Assembly (NCBI GenBank): GCA_036478295.1
Contig: JAZGDW010000030.1
Span: forward strand, 1 to 16,269
Reading direction: 5' to 3'
Source: Candidatus Krumholzibacteriia bacterium
GTDB taxonomy: Bacteria > Krumholzibacteriota > Krumholzibacteriia > WVZY01
Length of the DNA stretch: 16,269 nucleotides
Part shown: positions 5,309 through 16,269 of the stretch, in pieces
Layout of the letters: every line of letters begins with the position of its first letter
Position numbering within the stretch: position 1 is the stretch's first letter
Position numbers and translations under genes: made by a program
The notes under the pieces: generated by a model
Told to the model about the DNA's origin: nothing
The model's input: the letters and a program-made list of their open reading frames with translations, nothing else
Database searches by the model: none

Positions 5309-5411
5309 CCGGTTGACTGTTTCCTGACCCGCGCTCCACTTCGTTCGGCTACACCTCTGGGGGGCGCCGGTTGTATTGTTTCCCTCGCCGCGCTCCGCTT
5401 CGCTCGGCTAC
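5309..5411. repeat. Two-copy ~44-bp imperfect direct repeat (58-bp period), REP-like
   Basis: ccggttgactgtttcctgacccgcgctccacttcgttcggctac (5309-5352) and ccggttgtattgtttccctcgccgcgctccgcttcgctcggctac (5367-5411). Both end in CTAC (GTAG on the minus strand). Confidence 0.75.
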
Positions 5412-5440
5412 CCCGCTACGCGGGGTGATCCTCGCTCGCT

Positions 5441-5721
5441 CCCGCAACGGCTCTGTCAACAACCCAACCGACGCCCCCCTGCTTGTTCCCCGCAACGGCT
5501 CGGTCAACAACCCAGCAGCACGCCACCACCTGTACCCGCGACGGTTCCGTCACCAACCCAACCGCGCACCGCCACCTGCACACCGACGGGTCCGTCAACA
5601 GCCAACCGGTGCGCCACCCACCGAGTCTCGCGACGGTTCTGTCAACAATCCACCGGCGTACCGCCCGCTCGTTCCCGCGACGGCTCTGTCGACAACCCAA
5701 CAGCACGCCGCCTCGCTGGCT
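5441..5721. repeat. Six-unit degenerate tandem repeat array, ~26-bp conserved core plus 19-22-bp variable linker
   Basis: Core cccgcRacggYtcYgtcaacaaccca starts at 5441, 5489, 5535, 5580, 5627 and 5674 (periods 48, 46, 45, 47, 47). It contains the dyad GACGG-NN-CCGTC, perfect in copies 3 and 4. Confidence 0.9.
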
Positions 5722-5805
5722 CCCGGATCGTGTTAAGCGATAACATCTTTAGTGTCAAAGTTTTATGTTGTTGCTCTGAACTGTCGTGAAGTGGTGCATA
5801 ATGTT

Positions 5806-5833
5806 TTGCATTTTTTCCGTGCCTGGTTATACT
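5806..5833 (+). promoter_or_regulatory. Putative sigma70 promoter for the GT4 fusion gene
   Basis: TTGCAT (5806-5811), 16-nt spacer, TATACT (5828-5833), in an AT-rich patch ~30 nt upstream of the first ATG. Confidence 0.5.
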
Positions 5834-5851
5834 GAACGGGTAGAGCTATTG

Positions 5852-5914
5852 GGGAGGGGGAAGATGCTAGACGGGAGGGAAGATATGCTAGACGGGAGGG
5901 GAGATATGCTAGAC
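5852..5914 (+). repeat. 3 x 21-bp tandem repeat, each containing a GGAGG RBS and an in-frame ATG
   Basis: gggagggggaagatgctagac / gggagggaagatatgctagac / gggaggggagatatgctagac, with ATGs at 5864, 5885 and 5906. Confidence 0.92.
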
Positions 5915-8179
5915 GCCCACGACGACGTGCGGCATTTCCGGGGCATTGCTTTTATCGGGACCTACATTCCTAGAGCCTGCGGTATTGCTACATTTACCCA
6001 CGACCTTGCCGAGGCGACCGCGCGTTTGTCCGGCCCGGAACAGCCGGTCATCGTCACCGCAATGAACGAGCGCCCTCAGGGCTACCCGTACCCGGACAGG
6101 GTCAAATTCGAAATACGCCAGGACTACCAGGTCGATTACTCGCGCGCGGCGGACTTTCTCAACTTCAGCCGCCTCGACGTCATCAGCTTGCAGCATGAGT
6201 ACGGCATCTTCGGTGGTGAGTGGGGTGCCAACGTGCTTACGCTTCTCCGTGATCTCCATCCTCCTCTGGTTGTGACGTGTCACTCGGTGCCCAAGGAACC
6301 GGACCCCCTTCAAAAGGAAGTTTTCAGCGAAATTGCCGCGATGGCCAAGAGGATCGTCGTGATGAGTGCGAAAGCGTTCGAGTTGTTGGAAAGCGTGTAT
6401 GGGGTTCACCGCGATAAGGTCGTTCACATCTCCCACGGGATACACGACGTGCCGTTCGTCGATCCGAACTTCTACAAGGACAAATTCGGTGTGGAAGGAC
6501 GGCGGGTCATTCTTACCTTTGGCCTCCTCCATCGCGAGAAGGGCCTCGAATACATGCTCGAAGCGCTGCCGGCCATCGTCGAGCGACATCCGGACGTTGT
6601 CTACGTTATACTCGGAGCCACCCACCCGACCATCGAGGCTGAAGAAGGCGAATCCTACCGGCTGAGCCTCCAGCGGCGGGTGCGGGAGCTCGGGATCGAG
6701 AACCACGTGCTTTTCTATTCGCAGTTCGTGAGTTTGAAAGAGCTGCTTGAATACCTCGGTGCTTCGGACATCGTTGTGACGCCGTACCTCAACATCGATC
6801 GCATAACGAGCGGTGTCCTGGCATACGCGATAGGTTCGGGCAAGGCCGTCGTGTCCACTCCATACTGGCATGCCCAGGAGCTTCTCGCGGATGGCCGCGG
6901 CTGCCTGGTGCCGACACGTGATTCGAGGTTGCTCGCACAGCGGATCATCCAGCTGCTCGATGACGAACGCGAACTCAGCGCGATTCGCAAGAGAGCTTAT
7001 GAATACTCTCGCCACATGACCTGGCCGAATGTCGCAAAGAGTTATCTTGCACTCTTCGATGAAGTTAGAAGCCACGTTGCGACAAAGTGGCCCGCAGCAT
7101 CAGAGACGCGGCGTCCCATTACGGCGACGAACCTGCCGCTGCCCAAGCTCGATCACCTGGTCCGGTTGAGCGATGATACGGGGCCTTCCCACCACGCGCG
7201 GTTCACGCTGCCGGACTGGAGTTTTGGCTACCATCTGGAGGATGCTGCCGCGGCGCTCGTTGCCAGCTGCGAGTATCACAACATCCTTGGCGCGACGGAG
7301 GCGGTCCGCCTGTCCGGGACCTTTCTTGCCCTGCTACAGAATCTCATCCGTAATGGCCGGGACGTTGCGCAAGCACTCGACTACACCCGCCACCGCAAGG
7401 GTCGCGCATCCGAAGTAGCCCTGGGCAAGGCGGTGTGGGCGCTTGGACACGGCGTCAACCGGGGCCCGTCCGTGCTTGCCGCGGCGGCCAACGATCTCTT
7501 CCATCGTCTCCTGCCCCACGCACATTTCACCAGTCAATGGGGAGCCGCTTACGCGGTGCTCGGTGCGGTCCACTACCTCACGCGTTTCCCTGGAGCGACG
7601 GAAGTGCGGCGCTACCTGGCCGAGAACGCAGGCGAGGTCGAACAGGCATGCCGGCAGGCGGACTGGATCGAGCGCTGGCGGGCACCGGACTGGCCGGTGG
7701 CCGCCCAGGCGCTGACGATGGCCGCTTCGAGTCTCGGGCAGGATGGAATGCGCGTGCTCTCCTCGGAGCTCATCGCCAATATTCGCACAGCGACGGTTGA
7801 AGGCACTGTCTTTCTGAGGCGAGGAGACAACCCCGAGGAAGAGGAACTGCCTACCACGGCCTCCGCGTTCATTACCGCCCTCGACGCGGCGTACCAGACC
7901 GGCAGGGACAATGAGTTACTGCGGCCGATCCGCTCGGCGGCCGATTGGTTCCTTGGCGCGAACCGTATGGAAGAGACAATGTACGACTTTTCGACCGGCG
8001 GGTGTCACGACGGGCTGACGGCGAGCGGCGCCAACCGCAATCAGGGGACAGCGGCGACGGTTCATTGTCTGCTGGCTTTTCTCACGCTGCACCGGCTGGC
8101 CGGCTCAGACGCCACTTCGGTGTCGAACGGTAGTAATGGCGTCGAACATGAGCATCCCGAATTTTCCGAACAACATTAG
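5864..8179 (+). CDS. Glycosyltransferase family 4 protein with C-terminal six-hairpin-glycosidase-like domain
   Basis: N-terminal GT-B motifs GTYIPRACGIATFT, LQHEYGIFGG, TFGLL..KGLE, GATHP, TSGVLAYA, VVSTPYWHAQE. C-terminal HLVRLSDDTG, WFLGAN, GGCHDGL, NRNQG. The start may be 5864, 5885 or 5906. Confidence 0.88.
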   Translation: MLDGREDMLDGRGDMLDAHDDVRHFRGIAFIGTYIPRACGIATFTHDLAEATARLSGPEQPVIVTAMNERPQGYPYPDRVKFEIRQDYQVDYSRAADFLNFSRLDVISLQHEYGIFGGEWGANVLTLLRDLHPPLVVTCHSVPKEPDPLQKEVFSEIAAMAKRIVVMSAKAFELLESVYGVHRDKVVHISHGIHDVPFVDPNFYKDKFGVEGRRVILTFGLLHREKGLEYMLEALPAIVERHPDVVYVILGATHPTIEAEEGESYRLSLQRRVRELGIENHVLFYSQFVSLKELLEYLGASDIVVTPYLNIDRITSGVLAYAIGSGKAVVSTPYWHAQELLADGRGCLVPTRDSRLLAQRIIQLLDDERELSAIRKRAYEYSRHMTWPNVAKSYLALFDEVRSHVATKWPAASETRRPITATNLPLPKLDHLVRLSDDTGPSHHARFTLPDWSFGYHLEDAAAALVASCEYHNILGATEAVRLSGTFLALLQNLIRNGRDVAQALDYTRHRKGRASEVALGKAVWALGHGVNRGPSVLAAAANDLFHRLLPHAHFTSQWGAAYAVLGAVHYLTRFPGATEVRRYLAENAGEVEQACRQADWIERWRAPDWPVAAQALTMAASSLGQDGMRVLSSELIANIRTATVEGTVFLRRGDNPEEEELPTTASAFITALDAAYQTGRDNELLRPIRSAADWFLGANRMEETMYDFSTGGCHDGLTASGANRNQGTAATVHCLLAFLTLHRLAGSDATSVSNGSNGVEHEHPEFSEQH

Positions 8180-8213
8180 CAGTGCAGCCGTATGACGAAC
8201 GTCGTTGTGACTG

Positions 8214-11200
8214 TCACGATCCGCGTCCGTTGAGCACGGGAACGAGATCACGCAGCTTTCCTTTGGCCACGCCAATCGACGTGTCCGCCGCGCCGTAGTA
8301 GACGAAAATCTCGTCCTCTGGTTCGATGACGGCCTTGTCCACGGCGGGAACGGCGCCGCAAGCAAAGACAACGTGGGGTACCCAGTAGTCACGCTCTTCA
8401 TGCGTGCCTATTTCGAAATCGGTTTCCGGCGCCAGAATCGGGTTGGGCGATTGATAGATCACGCGAGCAGGGTCGGCAAGATCCATAAACAGGACACCGA
8501 GCCGATAGGTTCTCTCGTAGTCGACACCGTGGTAGATGTTGAGCCAGCCATGCGTGGTCTTGATCGGCTGGGCGCCGGCGCCGATCTTGATTCCATCCCA
8601 CATCATCCCCGACCGTGGCCCGGTTACGATCTGCTGTCCGGTTCTGGGCCACGGGCAGGTGAGGCTCTCCAGGTACGACACCCACATATTGGGATCGATA
8701 CGGTGGTAGACCACCCAGGACCCGTCGAACTTCTCGGGGTAGAGAACAGCGTCCTTGTTGGCCAGACCTGGAAACCCGAGACCGTGGCGTTCCCACTCCT
8801 CGAAGCGTCGCTCGATGAAGGCCTGCACCGGGATAGACGCCATCGCGATCTGCGCGATTTTCTTATCCCAGGCAGTGTAGAGCATATAGATGCGGTCACC
8901 AATCACGGTGACACGTGGGTCCTCACATCCGGCGGCCTCCGTGGCGTCAACGGGTTCGAAAATCGGGCGATCGCAACGTCCGTCGATGTGGACACCGTCA
9001 TGGCTCCACGCGAGACCGATGCGCGACACTTCATCTTCACCGAAGGCGCGGTAGAGGATGTAAACGGTGTCGCCGAGCCGTAGAGCGGCGGGGTTGAGCA
9101 CGTAACGGGACTCCCACGCGTGTTCGGGAACCGGCTCGAGCAGCGGCCCTTTCCCCATGCGTGTAAGCGCGCCCGAGGCCGGTGGCATGCTGCTCGGCGC
9201 CTGCGCGACCACGAGCTGATCGGGGTCGACCCGCACGTCCAGGAGGTGGTCGCGAAGGTTCTCCGATTCACGTCCCTCGCCCATGAGTTCCATGATTTTC
9301 TGGTCGATCGTGTTCTCGGCTCCCAGTCCCGCTCTTTCCATATAGAGGGTAAGAAACTCGCGCGTGCTCCAGTCCCGTTCGACGAGTGACGACAGCGGCG
9401 TGGGCGGCCCCATCCCTCCACGCGCGCTGAAACTGGCCCACGTCCACGCGGACAGCGGCACGAACGTGGCATCGGGCAGTGTAATCGACAGGTGATAGAC
9501 TTCCATGGCCGCTCTTAGAAAACGCGCCGCTTCCGTTTTTTGGGAATGAGATTCTTCGTCGAGGCCGGCGGCGAAGCGTTTGATCCGATCGACGAGAATG
9601 CGCTGGTGCCGGTTCTCGAACGCATTGTGTGCGCTCAAAACGTGCCGCCCCCAGTGCCCGCGGATGGACGAGACGACACGGGTCCGGAAATCCTTCTCGG
9701 CGGCGAAGCTCTCCCAGACTTCGGAGAACAACTCGACGCCGATGATACTCTGAATGAGTTTGAGGAAAAACCATAGCTTCGGGAACTCGCCCCCGAGCCC
9801 GGGCTGGAGATTCACGACCGCCATGCGTCCGGCCAGACGCGCCAGACCCGCCGTGCCGCTGAGCTCCGTTGCATAACCGAGATACTCGAGGCCGACAACA
9901 ACCGACCTCATCGGCGCCCGGTGGAACCATGTCGCGTCACCTTCCTTGGCGAAATAGTCCATGACACGCTGCAGATAATTCTGCTGGTCTGTCCAGGCCG
10001 CCGTGGCGAGCGCGTCGTTGGGATCGAACTGATCGAGCAGGGAACGGACGTTGTCGCAATGGGTGCGCATGAGGAGATTGTTCGGGGGTATCTGCGTAAG
10101 CAGATTCTCGGCGGCTTCCGGTGTCAGCTGAAAACTCTTTCCATCCCCCCGGCTCCCGCTGACAAATCGCCGGCAGATGTCTTCGGTTATCTGCCGTGTT
10201 CCGTCCACCGTTGTCAGGTTCTGAGGAAAGATGTCGCTGTCCAGCGCGCGGTCCAGCCCGTGCATGAACTGGTGCACCCGCTGCAGAATTTCGGAAGAAG
10301 CCGCCGCCTCGACAACGCCGAGATGTTCAGAAATAAACCCGGTGAATTGATTGCGGTAGCGGTCGATGAGTTCCTGGTAGATCTGGCTGGCCCACACCGA
10401 GCCGCCGTCCTTCTTGGTAAGCTCCTGCGGCACGATAACGCCGACGTTCGGGACGAATTCCCATGCACCGATCCGCGGCAAATAGGAAGCGGCGGAGCTC
10501 TTGCGCTCCAACCACGCCTGCCGAAACTGCGGCCACTGGTCCACAAAACGGTCTGTCTGTTTCTCGATGACGTATTCGGTTTCCCGTCTTACCACGGCAT
10601 CGGCCGCGGTGGCCCGCAAGAGCTTGCCGGCGTGGAAGGTTTTCTCGAACGCCGTAACCTCGTCGATGGATCGGGCCAGCCGGGCAAGGAAAAAAGCGAA
10701 CAGGCCGTCGACGATATCGTCCGGATGGAACTCACTCTCGAAACCGTAGGCGAGCACGAATTCACGCACGATCTCGATCCATTCTTCATCGTCAAGGGCA
10801 AGGTGGACCGCCCCCTGGTCGGCGAGCCGCTCCATTCTTTTCAGGAGATCGCCGGGCACAATCTTGGGAAAGAGCGTGTGGTCGTAATGATTGAACTCGA
10901 GTTTGAAACGCCGCCGCAAGGTGTCCGGCGTAAAGTGCAGCTTGTGCGGCGCGACGTCCAGCATGGGGCCAAAGACTTGTGGCCTGGCCACCGGCGCGGG
11001 TCGATCGATCCATGACCGGTCGTGCAAGACAACCTGGTGTAAGAGCGCCTGCGCCACCTGGTGAAAGACTAATTTGAGCTTGCCCACTTCGTGACGGAAA
11101 GAGGGAACTCCGAGGGGCACCTCGCAGATCGTCAGACCCTCCGCGAGCGCGCGGCAAATGGGCCATGGATCGAACCCGTACGTACCTGTTTCCTCCGACC

Positions 11201-11873
11201 ATGTGTCGGCGTCGGGAAGGCAGCCGCGAACGAGCTTGTGCGACATCGCGAAGACACCGGGCGTCGGTTGCCTCAGGTGGAGGCCAAATACGCCGGTCAG
11301 CATCGGGAAGGCAAGGAGGGACTCCACGGGATGGGCGAGCGGGTTGAGACTGAACCGGGCGAGTGCCAGGTCCTGTCCGTGTTCGCAGACTGGTTCCAGG
11401 AGTTGGGTGACCCACAGTGGTGAGAAGCCGCGCCCGGGCTTCTCGACTTTGCCCGCCTGCGGGACGAGGTTGGGTGCAAGTAACAGCAGAGGCGCTGCGA
11501 AGCGCGAGGCGGCCTCCATGACGGCGTTGATTGCCCATCCGCGGCCTTCGAGATGGCGGGCGTGCAGAAAAAAACGCGTCGGGACCTCCGGGCGTCCCCG
11601 CTTGCCTCGAAGCGCGGAGCGGAGCGTTGTCGCATGCCCTTCCGGTCCTACGCAGAGTACCAGCGCACGCTCGGACAGCCCGGCCCGCTCGAGCCCCCGT
11701 ATCGCCGTCGTCACCACGCCGCGCAGCGTGTCGGCTTCCCCGTGAAACGGTATGCCGACCACGATGTCGATCCCGTCCAGATCTGCCAACGACTCCAGAC
11801 CGCGGGTCACATCGGTCTTGAACCGGTCCCGACGTTTTTCCTCTGAGTGGCTTGCCTGTTTTTGCGTCCGCAA
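8214..11873 (-). CDS. Multidomain protein: glucosylglycerate-synthase-like GT-A domain + unknown central domain + GH130 glycoside phosphorylase/hydrolase
   Basis: TTG start with a GAGGTG RBS. N-terminal DIVVGIP, LRQP..G.F and YGFDPW. C-terminal WESRYVLNPAA, LYRA, GCEDPRV, NKDAVLYPEK, YHRI, KIGAG, YHGV, VPHVVF, YYGAAD. Confidence 0.85.
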   Translation of the reverse strand: MRTQKQASHSEEKRRDRFKTDVTRGLESLADLDGIDIVVGIPFHGEADTLRGVVTTAIRGLERAGLSERALVLCVGPEGHATTLRSALRGKRGRPEVPTRFFLHARHLEGRGWAINAVMEAASRFAAPLLLLAPNLVPQAGKVEKPGRGFSPLWVTQLLEPVCEHGQDLALARFSLNPLAHPVESLLAFPMLTGVFGLHLRQPTPGVFAMSHKLVRGCLPDADTWSEETGTYGFDPWPICRALAEGLTICEVPLGVPSFRHEVGKLKLVFHQVAQALLHQVVLHDRSWIDRPAPVARPQVFGPMLDVAPHKLHFTPDTLRRRFKLEFNHYDHTLFPKIVPGDLLKRMERLADQGAVHLALDDEEWIEIVREFVLAYGFESEFHPDDIVDGLFAFFLARLARSIDEVTAFEKTFHAGKLLRATAADAVVRRETEYVIEKQTDRFVDQWPQFRQAWLERKSSAASYLPRIGAWEFVPNVGVIVPQELTKKDGGSVWASQIYQELIDRYRNQFTGFISEHLGVVEAAASSEILQRVHQFMHGLDRALDSDIFPQNLTTVDGTRQITEDICRRFVSGSRGDGKSFQLTPEAAENLLTQIPPNNLLMRTHCDNVRSLLDQFDPNDALATAAWTDQQNYLQRVMDYFAKEGDATWFHRAPMRSVVVGLEYLGYATELSGTAGLARLAGRMAVVNLQPGLGGEFPKLWFFLKLIQSIIGVELFSEVWESFAAEKDFRTRVVSSIRGHWGRHVLSAHNAFENRHQRILVDRIKRFAAGLDEESHSQKTEAARFLRAAMEVYHLSITLPDATFVPLSAWTWASFSARGGMGPPTPLSSLVERDWSTREFLTLYMERAGLGAENTIDQKIMELMGEGRESENLRDHLLDVRVDPDQLVVAQAPSSMPPASGALTRMGKGPLLEPVPEHAWESRYVLNPAALRLGDTVYILYRAFGEDEVSRIGLAWSHDGVHIDGRCDRPIFEPVDATEAAGCEDPRVTVIGDRIYMLYTAWDKKIAQIAMASIPVQAFIERRFEEWERHGLGFPGLANKDAVLYPEKFDGSWVVYHRIDPNMWVSYLESLTCPWPRTGQQIVTGPRSGMMWDGIKIGAGAQPIKTTHGWLNIYHGVDYERTYRLGVLFMDLADPARVIYQSPNPILAPETDFEIGTHEERDYWVPHVVFACGAVPAVDKAVIEPEDEIFVYYGAADTSIGVAKGKLRDLVPVLNGRGS

Positions 11874-11976
11874 CGGTCCACCTCATACAAGGCCACGGCG
11901 GCGTAATATACCGTGCCGCCTCGCTGTCGGGGATAGAATGCAGCAACAATGAGAGGGTTTCAAGACGAACCGCTTC

Positions 11977-12921
11977 CTAGGTCTTATGGGCCGTCCAAAA
12001 AATGCGGGGAGCATCCGCATAGAGAAGAAAATAGGCTCGTAGAACCTCGCGGATGGCCCGCCACGACAGGCGGCTCGCCGCGTGAAGGAGCCGTATCAGC
12101 GGCTCCAGGAGAAGTGTGCCCGCCATCAGCCCGCCGGCCTGCCAGCGGTCGAAGTGCTTATAGCCGTACAAAATGCGACTTCGCAGGGCATAGAACATGC
12201 GCCTTGCTTTCACCTGCTGCGACGTACCGCCACTCCTGTGATACGCCTTCGCCGATGCCAGATAATAACTGCTCCATCCCGCCTGATGCGCCCGGTACGA
12301 GAAATCCAGGTCCTCGAGATAGACAAAAAACCGCTCGTCGAACCCCCCCAGTTGTGCAAAGAGCGATCCACGGACGAGGTAGAACGCGCCCATGACGTGG
12401 TCGACGGTCCTGTCTTCATCATGATCCCAGTCCGTTACAAAATGAGTCCTGAAAAGCCTGGGGCCCAGCTTGTCCAGACCCGCCATCTTGTTAAAGAACA
12501 GGGCCGGGGTGGGAAAGCGCGCGCAGGTCTTGCTTATTTGCTTGTCATCATCGACCAGCTGAATCCCGCAAATACCCACGCGACTGTTATTCTCTTGTTC
12601 CATGAAGCCGATCGGCTTGTCAAGCGACGCCTCGAACAGGCGCATGTCCGGATTGAGAAAGAGAACGTAATCTGCCTCGCTATGTCCCGCGCCCTGGTTA
12701 CAGGCGGCTCCGAACCCCACGTTTTCAGGATTGCGTATGGTTGTCAGGGGCAGGGCGCTTTTGTCCAGCGCGTCCATGGAGCCATCGGTCGACGCGTTAT
12801 CGACGATGATAACCTGGCGTAGGGTGAAGTTGTGGCGCGTTGCGTCGCGAATCGATTGCATGCACTCCCGCAACAGATCGCCGGCATTCCAGTTGACGAT
12901 AACGATATTCATAGTCGGCAA
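11977..12921 (-). CDS. Glycosyltransferase family 2 protein (WbbL/rhamnosyltransferase-like)
   Basis: IVIVNWN, VDNASTDGS, NVGFGAACNQG, LFLNPD, GAFYLVR, GGFDERFFVYLEDLD. Start is TTG 12921 or ATG 12912. Confidence 0.92.
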   Translation of the reverse strand: MPTMNIVIVNWNAGDLLRECMQSIRDATRHNFTLRQVIIVDNASTDGSMDALDKSALPLTTIRNPENVGFGAACNQGAGHSEADYVLFLNPDMRLFEASLDKPIGFMEQENNSRVGICGIQLVDDDKQISKTCARFPTPALFFNKMAGLDKLGPRLFRTHFVTDWDHDEDRTVDHVMGAFYLVRGSLFAQLGGFDERFFVYLEDLDFSYRAHQAGWSSYYLASAKAYHRSGGTSQQVKARRMFYALRSRILYGYKHFDRWQAGGLMAGTLLLEPLIRLLHAASRLSWRAIREVLRAYFLLYADAPRIFWTAHKT

Positions 12922-12939
12922 GATCGCACGTCCAAATTG

Positions 12940-14328
12940 CTAATGTTGCGGGCCCACCGGAGCATCGCAAACCGTCATGACTTCGTTCATGAAGATGTTT
13001 CTCAGGTGGTCCTCCGAGTAAACGTCCGGCGTGTGCGCCTCGTACTCGCCCGTCGTACACGCCTCGAGGAAACGCTTGACCACGGCGATCGATTCCGCCG
13101 GCGTCCGATAATCCGCGAGGAACATTTGTGGAACATCGTCAGCCACGCGCCATACCGCACCCGCCTTCTGTGTCACGGCCAAAATGGGTTTCTTCGCATG
13201 AATATATTCAAATAGTTTAAGGGGAATCACCCCTCGCAGTACGGAAAGCAGCAGCAGTCCATCTGCCTGCCGCAGGATCTCGAGCGTTTGTTTTCGTGTT
13301 ACCGCCGGTTCACATTGCAGCGCCCAACCGGTGCGTCGAAGCGGAGTCTTCCAGCGATCCACATCCCGCAGGTCGTCGCGGTTCAAATCTCCCAGCAGCG
13401 TAATGGTCCCTCCGCTCTTGTATTGTTCCGTTGCGCTGGATAGCAGGCCGAGCAGGTGACGTGGTGCGCGTGCGTTACTGGAGCTGGTGAAACGACCGGC
13501 GTGAACCAGGTGTATCGCGCGGGTTTCATCGGGATCGAGCGGATCCGGGTTTTCCGCAGTGACCGCGACGCCGGATCGTCCACGGTGTCTCGCGGTCGCA
13601 GCGTCATCCTTCACGGCATCACGCGGATTTACACCGCTCGTATCGCTCCCGGCGAGCGGATACGCATTCGTTACAACAACAGTCTTGTCGCGTGTGAAAG
13701 GCAGCCGGGTGCCAAGCAATTCGTTCCACACCGGTGACGTGACGACGATCTTGTCCGCCTGCGCGAAGACTCGCCTCTCCAGCCGGCCTTCGCGCCACCT
13801 CTGTAGTCTGTATTTTTGCAGCAGGGGCTTGTGCGGCTCGTCGAGCCAGCCGTCCCTGAGGTCGATACAAAGCCTCGTGCCCAGCCGTTCGGCGATCCGG
13901 CTCGAGGCGAGGTGAATCGATTCCGGCGGGCTGGAGGAGAGCACGCAGGCGGCACCCCGTCCATACTCTTCGACCAGCGGGTGTGTAACCACGCGCCGCA
14001 CCCATGCAATTGTCGGGTCCGGATTGAACATCAGGTATGCCAACAGTCTCCGGTACCTGTTGGGTTTCCTTCTGGTATTGGTTGTCGTCTGCGCGTCCGT
14101 ATCGCGATAGAGGCCCAGGGGATCGCGGATCGTTAATTCATGACCGAGACTTGTCGTCTCCACAGCGTCGGTCGAGCCTGCCCTGACGATAACGACGTTA
14201 TACCCCGCCTGCGACAGCCAACGCGCATACCTGTCGACCCGGTAATGGCCCACGTGGCCGGCGTGGCGCCAGTATGGTGCGATAATGAGGATCGTATTCT
14301 GGGTCGGTCGCATGGGTCTGTTTGCCAT
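12940..14328 (-). CDS. Glycosyltransferase family 4-like (GT-B) protein
   Basis: SSSPPES.HL, DLRDGW, ADKIVVTS, TNAY, HAGRF, ADGLLL, IPLKLFEY..AKKPILA. Co-oriented with the GT2 gene. Confidence 0.82.
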   Translation of the reverse strand: MANRPMRPTQNTILIIAPYWRHAGHVGHYRVDRYARWLSQAGYNVVIVRAGSTDAVETTSLGHELTIRDPLGLYRDTDAQTTTNTRRKPNRYRRLLAYLMFNPDPTIAWVRRVVTHPLVEEYGRGAACVLSSSPPESIHLASSRIAERLGTRLCIDLRDGWLDEPHKPLLQKYRLQRWREGRLERRVFAQADKIVVTSPVWNELLGTRLPFTRDKTVVVTNAYPLAGSDTSGVNPRDAVKDDAATARHRGRSGVAVTAENPDPLDPDETRAIHLVHAGRFTSSSNARAPRHLLGLLSSATEQYKSGGTITLLGDLNRDDLRDVDRWKTPLRRTGWALQCEPAVTRKQTLEILRQADGLLLLSVLRGVIPLKLFEYIHAKKPILAVTQKAGAVWRVADDVPQMFLADYRTPAESIAVVKRFLEACTTGEYEAHTPDVYSEDHLRNIFMNEVMTVCDAPVGPQH

Positions 14329-14513
14329 CCGGGGGACGCACCGCTTTGCAAGACTCGTCGTACGGCGCAGATTCTACAGCATTTTCCAGAGTCTGGGCAC
14401 TCAAAGAAGTAGGTGCCGATCGCCGCAGTTGTCGTTCGTGGACGGGGCAGCGTGCAACCCGCGACCGTCACCCGGTTAGTGGGTAACCGACCCGTACCGT
14501 CGCTTGCCCGCGC

Positions 14514-14544
14514 TTGACAACGCACTCTATTTCGTGTTTATACT
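14514..14544 (+). promoter_or_regulatory. Putative sigma70 promoter of the tRNA-Pro locus
   Basis: TTGACA (14514-14519) and TATACT (14539-14544), 19 nt before the tRNA 5' end. The 19-nt spacer is longer than optimal. Confidence 0.55.
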
Positions 14545-14563
14545 CGCATTTACGGCATTCCGT

Positions 14564-14610
14564 CGGGGCGTAGCGCAGTCCGGTTAGCGCACCTGCTTTG
14601 GGAGCAGGAG
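14564..14610 (+). pseudogene. tRNA-Pro(TGG) 5' fragment lacking the T-arm and 3' acceptor strand; probable att site
   Basis: CGGGGCG-TA-GCGC-AGTCCGGTTA-GCGC-A-CCTGC-TTTGGGA-GCAGG-AG gives the acceptor 5' strand, D-arm and anticodon arm (TGG at 14599-14601). Unrelated AT-rich sequence follows, with no GTTC loop. Confidence 0.88.
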
Positions 14611-14846
14611 TTTTGTTAGTGTAACGTCCAATTTATGAATGAGTTACAGCCTGTTGTAACGCTTGCGAACATTGTTACGAACCGCGGAATGCAGGGGTGA
14701 TTGAGGGTATTAACGGGGCCTCATAGCTTGCGCGGACAGTCACGAAATTTATGTTGTGCGGAGTGCCTCGGAACTGTGCGCTTCAAGCTCGTTCCGAGTA
14801 TATTCCCGCTTGGAAGGTCATCTGCGCCATGGAGTCTTTTCCCCGA

Positions 14847-14874
14847 TTGACAAGAATTCACGAATTGGTACAAT
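14847..14874 (+). promoter_or_regulatory. Strong sigma70-type promoter
   Basis: TTGACA (14847-14852), 16-nt spacer, extended -10 TGnTACAAT (14866-14874). Confidence 0.75.
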
Positions 14875-14880
14875 ATTATT

Positions 14881-15095
14881 AGCAGCAATGCAGTCATCAC
14901 CGGTTTGACTCTCGCTGCATCGCGTGCCGGTGGAGGGCTATCATCCCTCAACTGGAGACCCGGAAAACGGTCAACCCTCTTCAGGGTTGCCTTACCGCCT
15001 ACCGGGCAACCCACACTGCCACGCCACTACACGTGGCAAGGCAGGGCAAGGAACCGGTGTTGGAGCCGTCTGTTCAGACGGCTCCGCTTTTTTTT
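14881..15095 (+). ncRNA. Unassigned structured sRNA or leader RNA (~215 nt)
   Basis: Bounded by the promoter above and an intrinsic terminator. Contains a chain of hairpins and no plausible RBS-led ORF. Confidence 0.6.
15062..15095 (+). terminator. Rho-independent terminator
   Basis: GGAGCCGTCT-gttc-AGACGGCTCC perfect 10-bp stem, then GC and T8. Confidence 0.85.
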
Positions 15096-15143
15096 GGGGG
15101 ACAGGATTAGGAGGGCGAATAATCTATTCTTACATCTGCTGTT

Positions 15144-15166
15144 GGCGGCGGGAATCGAACCCTGTC
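15144..15166 (-). mobile_element. Degenerate tmRNA/tRNA 3'-end fragment, att-site remnant
   Basis: Minus strand reads GACAGGGTTCGATTCCCGCCGCC, a T-loop plus the 3' strand typical of ssrA ends (GGGTTCGATTCCCGCCGCCTCCACCA), without the rest of the gene. Confidence 0.55.
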
Positions 15167-15487
15167 GTAGTGCAAACCTTAACCTAATGGTGGCGTGCGA
15201 TTTCGGTCACTACCGCTTCAGGAAACTGGAGTTACTCCGCCGCCACTTGTCCTCCACAGTCCTCCCGAATCCACTGCCGTCCACCCCAGTCATGGAGATA
15301 TATTGGAGACGCTGCCGGAGCAGCCGATCCGTGGCGAAGTGTTTGTCATCGGTCACATAATCTTCTGGCGCTCAGCCGCGCTCTATCACTTCGCCTCGCC
15401 GCCGCCCAGTGCGTTCAACCGCTGCTGTGCATCCGCCACTTTTTTGTAGCAGTCAGTCTTTGGGGTGTTTGGGGGAGCGCTCCGGGT

Positions 15488-15686: not shown

Positions 15687-15717
15687 GGAATCGAACCGCC
15701 GACACACGGATTTTCAG
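15687..15717 (-). mobile_element. tRNA-Phe(GAA) 3' fragment, att-site remnant
   Basis: Minus strand CTGAAAATCCGTGTGTCGGCGGTTCGATTCC covers the anticodon loop through the T-loop of a typical tRNA-Phe. The 5' half and acceptor end are absent. Confidence 0.8.
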
Positions 15718-15905
15718 ATGAGTTGGTCGCCCAGCGGGAAGACTACCCATTAACGAATCGGTCTGCAGCTGGATTCGGACTCACAGGGTTAGTTCGGCTG
15801 AGAGTTCGAGACCACTTTGGGGAGCTACGGCCGCCTTGCCACACCCTTGGCCGACTGGCCTACAAATTGCACATTCCCCGATGACTCCTGCCAGGGGAAT
15901 GTGCT

Positions 15906-16269
15906 ATGAAGAAGTCTTTGATATTGCTTGTCTTGCCGCTCTTACTCGCCGGAGGCTGCGGAGACGACAATCGCCCCGTCGACGCGCAGCCGTTGCTTGA
16001 TGACCTCGTCATAGCCAATTGCTACGCGCTTCGAGACTCTGTTGAGGCATACGCCACCCAGAACGGCGAGTATCCAGATTTTACCCCTTGGAGGCCCTGG
16101 TTCAATAACCCTTTCACCGGCAACCTGACCCAACCCGTACAAACGTTTGCTCTCAATCCCGGTGAAACCGGTTATGTTCCGTACTACGTGGGACAGAAGT
16201 ATGAGGGATACCTGATTACGGGTTTCGGGGAAACCAATCAGATAATCAGTCTGAAGAGGAACTATCCCG
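15906..16269 (+). CDS. Predicted lipoprotein with pseudopilin/GspG-like motifs; 3' end outside the window
   Basis: Manual translation: MKKSLILLVLPLLLAGGC-GDDNRPVDAQPLLDDLVIANCYALRDSVEAYATQNGEYP...NPFTG...YLITGFGE... Signal peptide with lipobox Cys18, AGGGGA RBS, and no stop in 121 codons. Confidence 0.8.
   Translation, partial: MKKSLILLVLPLLLAGGCGDDNRPVDAQPLLDDLVIANCYALRDSVEAYATQNGEYPDFTPWRPWFNNPFTGNLTQPVQTFALNPGETGYVPYYVGQKYEGYLITGFGETNQIISLKRNYP

Follow-up and report, generated by a model that had tools for sequence, protein, structure and literature searches.

A predicted RNA transcription unit in a tRNA-Pro island

The window, by which is meant the whole stretch of 16,269 nucleotides analysed (contig JAZGDW010000030.1 of the Candidatus Krumholzibacteriia assembly GCA_036478295.1), contains near its right end an extended sigma-70 promoter, a predicted structured RNA, an intrinsic terminator and a Shine-Dalgarno-like word, flanked by fragments of tRNA and tmRNA genes (Table 1). 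The motifs quoted in an earlier note on this DNA were all recovered where it had placed them or at most one base away. The promoter that it had called near-consensus matches 11 of 12 consensus positions, with a TG before the -10 box, and the spacer includes a 12-base palindrome (14855-14866) that is a possible operator. There are 73 sites of this promoter class in the 3.5-Mb assembly, seven of them with a strong terminator within 330 bases, and the terminator of the unit is the most stable of the seven; it has a probability of 1.0 in the folding ensemble. The AGGAGG described as an orphan is indeed there, with 27 bases between the T run and the expected start position, but is not unusual, as an SD-like pentamer lies within 35 bases of six of the 72 strong terminators of the genome, four of the six without a start codon.

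Table 1. Features of the unit and of the surrounding island (positions in the window)
Feature	Position	Strand	Basis and remarks
tRNA-Pro(TGG) 5' fragment, island left end	14564..14610	+	Rfam tRNA, 25.8 bits; T arm missing
Island arm, short repeated motifs	14611..14749	+	Repeat and similarity to genome G008
Extended sigma-70 promoter	14847..14874	+	Consensus match
Predicted RNA, ~215 nt	14881..15095	+	Start predicted 7 bases behind the -10 box
P1, early hairpin; 9-nt loop 14897-14905 with self-complementary hexamer	14882..14918	+	Folding
Long-range helix, 5' strand, 9 bp	14898..14906	+	Partner 15051-15059; probability 0.94-0.99
P2, hairpin, most variable part	14927..14955	+	Folding; four listed differences here
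P3, 16-bp nested hairpin with 4x4 internal loop and 4-nt bulge	14959..15006	+	z -4.0
P4, 5+5-bp hairpin with 2x2 loop	15016..15044	+	Folding
Long-range helix, 3' strand	15051..15059	+	Folding
Intrinsic terminator, 11 bp and 8 T	15061..15095	+	Signal scan
Shine-Dalgarno-like word, no ATG/GTG/TTG behind	15109..15114	+
Attachment scar: decayed tmRNA 3' end (15144-15162) and arm module	15144..15311	-	Sequence match
tRNA-Phe 3' fragment, another attachment scar	15687..15717	-	97% to tRNA-Phe on contig C197

The 3' part of the tRNA-Pro(TGG) gene was not found in the assembly. The gene is intact at the syntenic site of the same-genus genome G001, and the genome G008 has the same fragment together with an intact copy that adjoins a tyrosine integrase. 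Positions 14562-14749 are 72% alike to a stretch on contig C1 of G008, which has a second copy of it, and the repeats in the arm are probably integrase arm sites. Behind the fragment and a 150-base arm, G008 continues with a tmRNA-type module, the RNA being missing there. On comparison of these sequences, the island is one that displaces the 5' part of a tRNA-Pro gene. This is the less common class: of the 3919 islands in the Islander paper (PMC4383910), 159 have a 5' fragment. Close relatives of the G008 integrase are present in three more of 208 genomes, with none in the assembly of the RNA itself, and one relative lies in a viral contig that resembles a phage satellite, based on gene functions read by eye.

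On the other side of the unit, the tmRNA-type scar matches the tmRNA 3' end on contig C256 and four copies on contig C184, and scars of this type are found in 15 of the 207 other genomes of the phylum. The suspected mobile region is borne out by two elements that the earlier note had missed, the tRNA-Pro fragment on one side of the unit and the tmRNA-type scar on the other; the RNA is accessory, a cargo lying between them in an insertion hot spot. In 16 of the 208 genomes (including 15144-15441 of the window), modules of ~168 bases made of a tmRNA end and an arm occur in stacks with single cargo genes between them, and short tandem repeats of the tmRNA end also occur at loci L121, L123 and L125. 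In G008, the tRNA-Pro island end and the tmRNA-type module are paired twice, inverted and 22 kb apart (L054-L056; C1:59-514, C1:22062-22544 and C72:925-2353), and the stretch between the inverted pairs holds its own integrase and an IS110-like gene.

Several other features of the window and genome were recorded. A block of ~9 kb with glycosyltransferase and glycoside phosphorylase genes (5480-14528) lies between an ABC permease and the tRNA-Pro promoter and is absent at the syntenic place in G001 and G008, and the gap behind the permease gene has several imperfect repeats (5371-5760), part of which matches G001. Ahead of the gene at 15906 stands a word of 23-26 bases (15800-15824) that is found again on contigs C85, C313 and C13; the gene itself matches nothing in Pfam, and contig C25 carries a paralogue of it. 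The sole complete tRNA with a TGG anticodon in the assembly (L023, G000 C150:10823-10910) is called Pro(tgg) by ARAGORN, with an 88-base body and a long variable arm like that of tRNA-Leu or tRNA-Ser, and may represent a mismatch of body and anticodon.

Predicted fold and the question of a switch

Positions 14880-15096 fold well beyond chance (z -4.33, equalled by none of 200 shuffles), as does the RNA body without the terminator (z -3.56, none of 300), and 220-base controls from the flanks are not folded (z +0.94 and -1.32); the opposite strand of the RNA folds equally well (z -3.8 to -4.1). The dominant fold consists of P2, P3 and P4 together with the 9-bp long-range helix, with ensemble probabilities of 0.94-0.96 for P3 and 0.92 for P4, and the helix encloses 144 nt and is flanked on its inner side by G14907 and G15050. 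P1 is present in all growing-chain folds up to 15045 except one and is weak by itself (z -1.9, with 13 of 300 shuffles as good); the first hairpin of the earlier note is better drawn at 14882-14918. The complementarity that had been noticed between its loop and the stretch before the terminator is well supported, an 8-bp head-to-tail helix arising by chance in only 24 of 5000 shuffles.

The folding program scores no pseudoknots, and P1 and the long-range helix appear in it as two pseudoknot-free states 1-3 kcal apart. By established RNA geometry, a 9-nt loop cannot pair all of 8-9 bases with its stem closed, and the model suggests that in the finished RNA the P1 loop can pair with the 3' tail through a partial pseudoknot or by the opening of P1. 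Alternative partners of the loop are 14926-14933 or a second copy of its own sequence. A resemblance of P1 to the D arm of tRNA-Pro was rejected as being at an estimated chance level. The loops of P3 (14977-14984) and of the terminator (15068-15077) share a nearly identical 8-base word, possibly a repeated protein-binding hairpin.

The mutually exclusive helices proposed in the earlier note proved to be minor sub-states of the nested P3 and P4, with ensemble probabilities of 0.04 for the 14984/15012 helix, 0.025 for the ccg-gaaaa-cgg hairpin and 0.08 for the tgccacg/cgtggca hairpin, 4-6 kcal worse than the dominant fold, and a change at 15011 in three metagenome copies (X1, X3 and X6) breaks the 8-bp competing helix. 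What could still act as a switch is the pair formed by P1 and the long-range helix, which would decide termination in a riboswitch or attenuator whose gene has been lost. The two differ by 1-3 kcal and, when fully formed, are mutually exclusive, the 5' strand of the long-range helix can reach the 5' arm of the terminator and a ribosome-site word follows. However, the best antiterminator gains 5 kcal, and 168 of 300 shuffled arms do as well; the terminated state is 12-15 kcal better. Because no antiterminator exceeds chance, the terminator looks constitutive in this model. The earlier note had recognized no riboswitch consensus, and no riboswitch family appeared at E 10 in three Rfam scans. No regulated gene follows the unit here, although the X6 sequence may fork just behind the ribosome-site word; a gene lost from this place is possible, and the Shine-Dalgarno-like word is weak evidence of one. 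The RNA was not found in searches of the phylum, in which one would expect to meet a metabolite sensor repeatedly. The attenuator or riboswitch suggested earlier is thus improbable.

Homologue searches and natural variants

Within Rfam 15 no family, with riboswitches, 6S, raiA, abiF, C4 and HEARO among those covered, reached its gathering threshold, the best score over the RNA being 15.5 bits against a threshold of 37, and three scans to E 10 returned nothing for the RNA. T-box, SAM-I, glycine and cobalamin riboswitches, CsrB-type RNA, group II intron domain V, IS110 bridge RNA and 6S RNA were rejected by inspection against their consensus features, the genome's own 6S lying elsewhere. BLAST returned 10 short matches (18-44 bases) from 100 relatives, either coding or not extendable, and four short matches but no homologue from 207 genomes of the phylum; phage records gave two chance matches only and plasmid records none. 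A covariance model, weak by construction as it is built from a single sequence, gave one partial match (E 0.05) among 149 relatives, none among 38 relatives and one among 307 genomes of other phyla (5 + 151 + 151), the last of which looks on inspection like the opposite strand of a tRNA gene and was discarded. The model gave nothing under E 0.08 next to the tmRNA scars, next to the integrase or next to 30 loci of the phylum that encode a reverse transcriptase.

In viral contigs, pattern scans yielded 0, 0, 36, 5, 57 and 0 stretches, none supported by the model, and in GTDB they yielded 0 and at least 120 stretches, 80 of which were scored with the model (best E 0.2). One viral and at least three metagenome loci from translated-frame scans, the metagenome scan being weak, were set aside as unrelated coding DNA. 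The homologues found in these searches come down to near-identical metagenome copies, and covariation is absent as a result. With searches of a kind that misses diverged relatives, the spread appears very narrow, with one genome of 208 and the near-identical metagenome copies. The literature search returned nothing joining Krumholzibacteriota with noncoding RNA and nothing on the element, the supplements of retron surveys lying outside it.

Variants were drawn from four metagenome runs (X1, X2, X3 and X6) of three studies, with near-identical copies in three marine runs. The X1 copy covers 14740-15116 with five letters differing, the X6 copy 14845-15118 with six letters differing and three gaps, and the X3 copy 15007-15137. 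Among the differences listed, all five substitutions inside the RNA are at positions unpaired in the model (P about 0.007, with 60% of positions pairing), as are seven of the eight substitutions and indels (P 0.008), in a test that comprises eight listed differences in low-depth contigs of related organisms; the pattern is support for the fold and not proof of it. The variant at 15030 falls in the P4 loop, and no substitution among the differences listed falls in P3. One X3 contig skips 14972-15006, which is most of P3, and X6 is one base short in the lower P2 stem. No RNA sequencing runs were listed among the matching runs, which says nothing about expression.

At its 5' side, the X6 match stops at 14845, at the -35 box, with other DNA upstream. 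At its 3' side, the RNA-bearing X6 contig extends to 15118 and overlaps by 30 bases with the next contig, which begins at 15089; depth across the break is about half (2.75 in the next contig and 5.12 in the RNA contig). The next contig is identical over 15089-15162 and continues into the tmRNA-type core. The break may resemble an assembly-graph fork just behind the ribosome-site word.

Some of these observations would fit a remnant in decay, or a barrier against read-through from the upstream tRNA promoter, with folding as a leftover: the unit sits among three attachment scars, was found in one genome of 208 and has lost most of P3 in one X3 contig. We consider this hardly probable, as the promoter is intact and near-consensus, the folding persists without the terminator (z -3.6) and the differences avoid stems. 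The unit looks genuine and apparently maintained by selection, and it is very probably a real RNA gene. The earlier suggestion of an undescribed sRNA in a mobile region accords with the lack of an Rfam match, the island context and the position of the variants in loops.

Possible roles and likeness to known RNA systems

What lies at the end of the island looks to be a structured RNA that is undescribed and has a narrow spread, and not the helix switch that had been proposed. One role open to it is that of a self-sufficient trans-acting sRNA or scaffold (a base-pairing regulator, a sponge or a raiA-like RNA) that never needed a neighbour gene. It has a strong promoter and terminator of its own, the X6 unit begins at the -35 box with different DNA upstream, and X6 has the same gene-less 3' flank with differences that stay in loops. 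Such a role is possible but somewhat unlikely, given that no target exceeds chance (the longest antisense match in the genome is 15 nt, a length reached by 167 of 200 shuffles), that no Rfam family matches and that the spread is very narrow, unlike that of raiA RNA (PMC12968392).

The opposite strand bears on a further reading, in which the RNA would be the antisense antitoxin of a type I locus. The mRNA would run on the minus strand from ~15114, with a structured leader and a 58-codon frame (14897-14721) inside which the plus-strand promoter lies. The frame opens with a short hydrophobic run, and its start adjoins the long-range helix. Folding of the minus strand is good, with P3-P4 folding better on it as RNA, and the AGGAGG, placed at the 5' end of such an mRNA, would serve as an anti-SD, as has been described for type I toxin-antitoxin loci. 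This reading is very doubtful: the signal scan has no minus-strand promoter or terminator there, the ribosome site is weak, the AT-richness of the start region accounts for the ~11-residue hydrophobic run, no protein relative was found among proteins of at least 31 residues (Pfam best E 0.048) and the X6 match ends after codon 18.

With neither switch logic nor an antisense target exceeding chance nor support for a small protein, a role based on shape is the likeliest. The explanation that we tentatively favour, by analogy, is that the RNA forms one half of a protein-RNA cassette and that the gene for its protein partner has been lost or lies elsewhere. An independently transcribed and constitutively terminated RNA of ~215 nt, part of the cargo of the tRNA-Pro island at its left end, would be abundantly made, with P1-P4 folding during transcription and the long-range helix closing the 5' and 3' ends once the RNA is complete. 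It would then act by its shape, partnering a protein of a mobile defence or addiction cassette in the order promoter, RNA, leaky terminator, ribosome site and protein gene known from AbiF/RCd22 and type III systems, or, in a second flavour, would be the template for a retron-type reverse transcriptase. The partner gene would formerly have stood behind the terminator, to be displaced by tmRNA-type cassettes, or would lie in an unassembled part of the island.

The layout, with its 27 bases from T run to would-be start, is that of RCd22-abiF, and the location at the cargo end of an island, with an integrase relative in a phage-satellite-like contig, points the same way, as do the lack of a long antisense target and of switch logic, the unpaired position of all listed substitutions in the near-identical copies and the fork-like break of X6 just behind the ribosome site. 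Against the cassette stand the absence of any partner gene in view, with the X6 contig also running into the tmRNA-type core, and the absence of Abi_2, reverse transcriptase and TROVE genes from the 91% complete assembly (no reverse transcriptase gene being contiguous with the RNA); ToxN was likewise not found in the assembly, in a search without a positive control. In addition, ribosome-site words are common behind terminators, no distant homologue was found that would provide covariation, the variant test is small at eight listed differences, with the lower stem of P2 one base shorter in X6, and folding is equally good on the opposite strand. A free-standing RNA cassette that has its own promoter and terminator, moves among island hot spots without any protein gene and acts in trans on another element's protein is unlikely; it would be an orphan retron-type template, or else a spare antitoxin or decoy by which an RNA-controlled defence system is disarmed.

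Structured RNAs of mobile islands have repeatedly proved to be parts of defence systems, including retrons and the type III and AbiF antitoxins. The RNA described here matches no family, and its lineage has been studied very little; its shape bears signs of selection although no gene stands beside it. Its partner, once found, could reveal a new RNA-protein module, and if it is truly alone it would be a mobile RNA-only cargo. The narrow spread and the absent covariation keep its present value moderate.

With respect to known systems, the flanks correspond to the displaced fragments of the tRNA and tmRNA islands in Islander (PMC4383910), which leave the RNA itself unexplained. The RNA shares with the raiA motif RNA a length of ~200 nt, a closing 5'-3' helix, several stems and a possible pseudoknot, but the raiA RNA is widespread (PMC12968392), whereas the RNA here is narrow, lies in a mobile scar and has no Rfam match. 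Other orphan structured RNA motifs are similar in size (~200 nt) and in having a closing helix, several stems and a possible pseudoknot.

Retron msr-msd RNAs have paired ends that enclose hairpins, with a bordering G on both strands (PMC13402713 and PMC7736814). The a1/a2-like pairing here has 9 bp with G14907 and G15050, and two such G would occur by chance about 1 time in 10, by estimate. In a retron, one long msd stem adjoins the 3' repeat and a reverse transcriptase gene is contiguous with the RNA, whereas the predicted fold here has two hairpins in place of that stem, and a terminator takes the place of the gene; as DNA, both strands of P3-P4 fold equally (-26.1 and -25.6) into two hairpins rather than one. 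A retron-like locus of the same order (L338, G031 C10:155212-159018) has a 153-nt RNA with an end repeat of ~19 bp, against 9 bp here, and then a 420-residue reverse transcriptase whose gene starts 12 bases behind the RNA.

The RCd22-abiF locus of Clostridioides difficile comprises a housekeeping promoter, a structured RNA, a strong intrinsic terminator and a ribosome site, and AbiF/RCd22 and type III toxin-antitoxin systems share with the unit this order and the setting in mobile DNA (bioRxiv 10.1101/2025.04.15.648962). The AbiF/RCd22 RNA is given there as 132 nt, against ~215 nt here, and these systems have a toxin gene downstream, where none stands directly behind the terminator of the unit. 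The RNA also has neither tandem repeats nor the abiF motif (no match to RF03085), which counts against the cassette reading. Although a member of none of them, the RNA may by analogy work in the manner of the AbiF, type III or retron systems.
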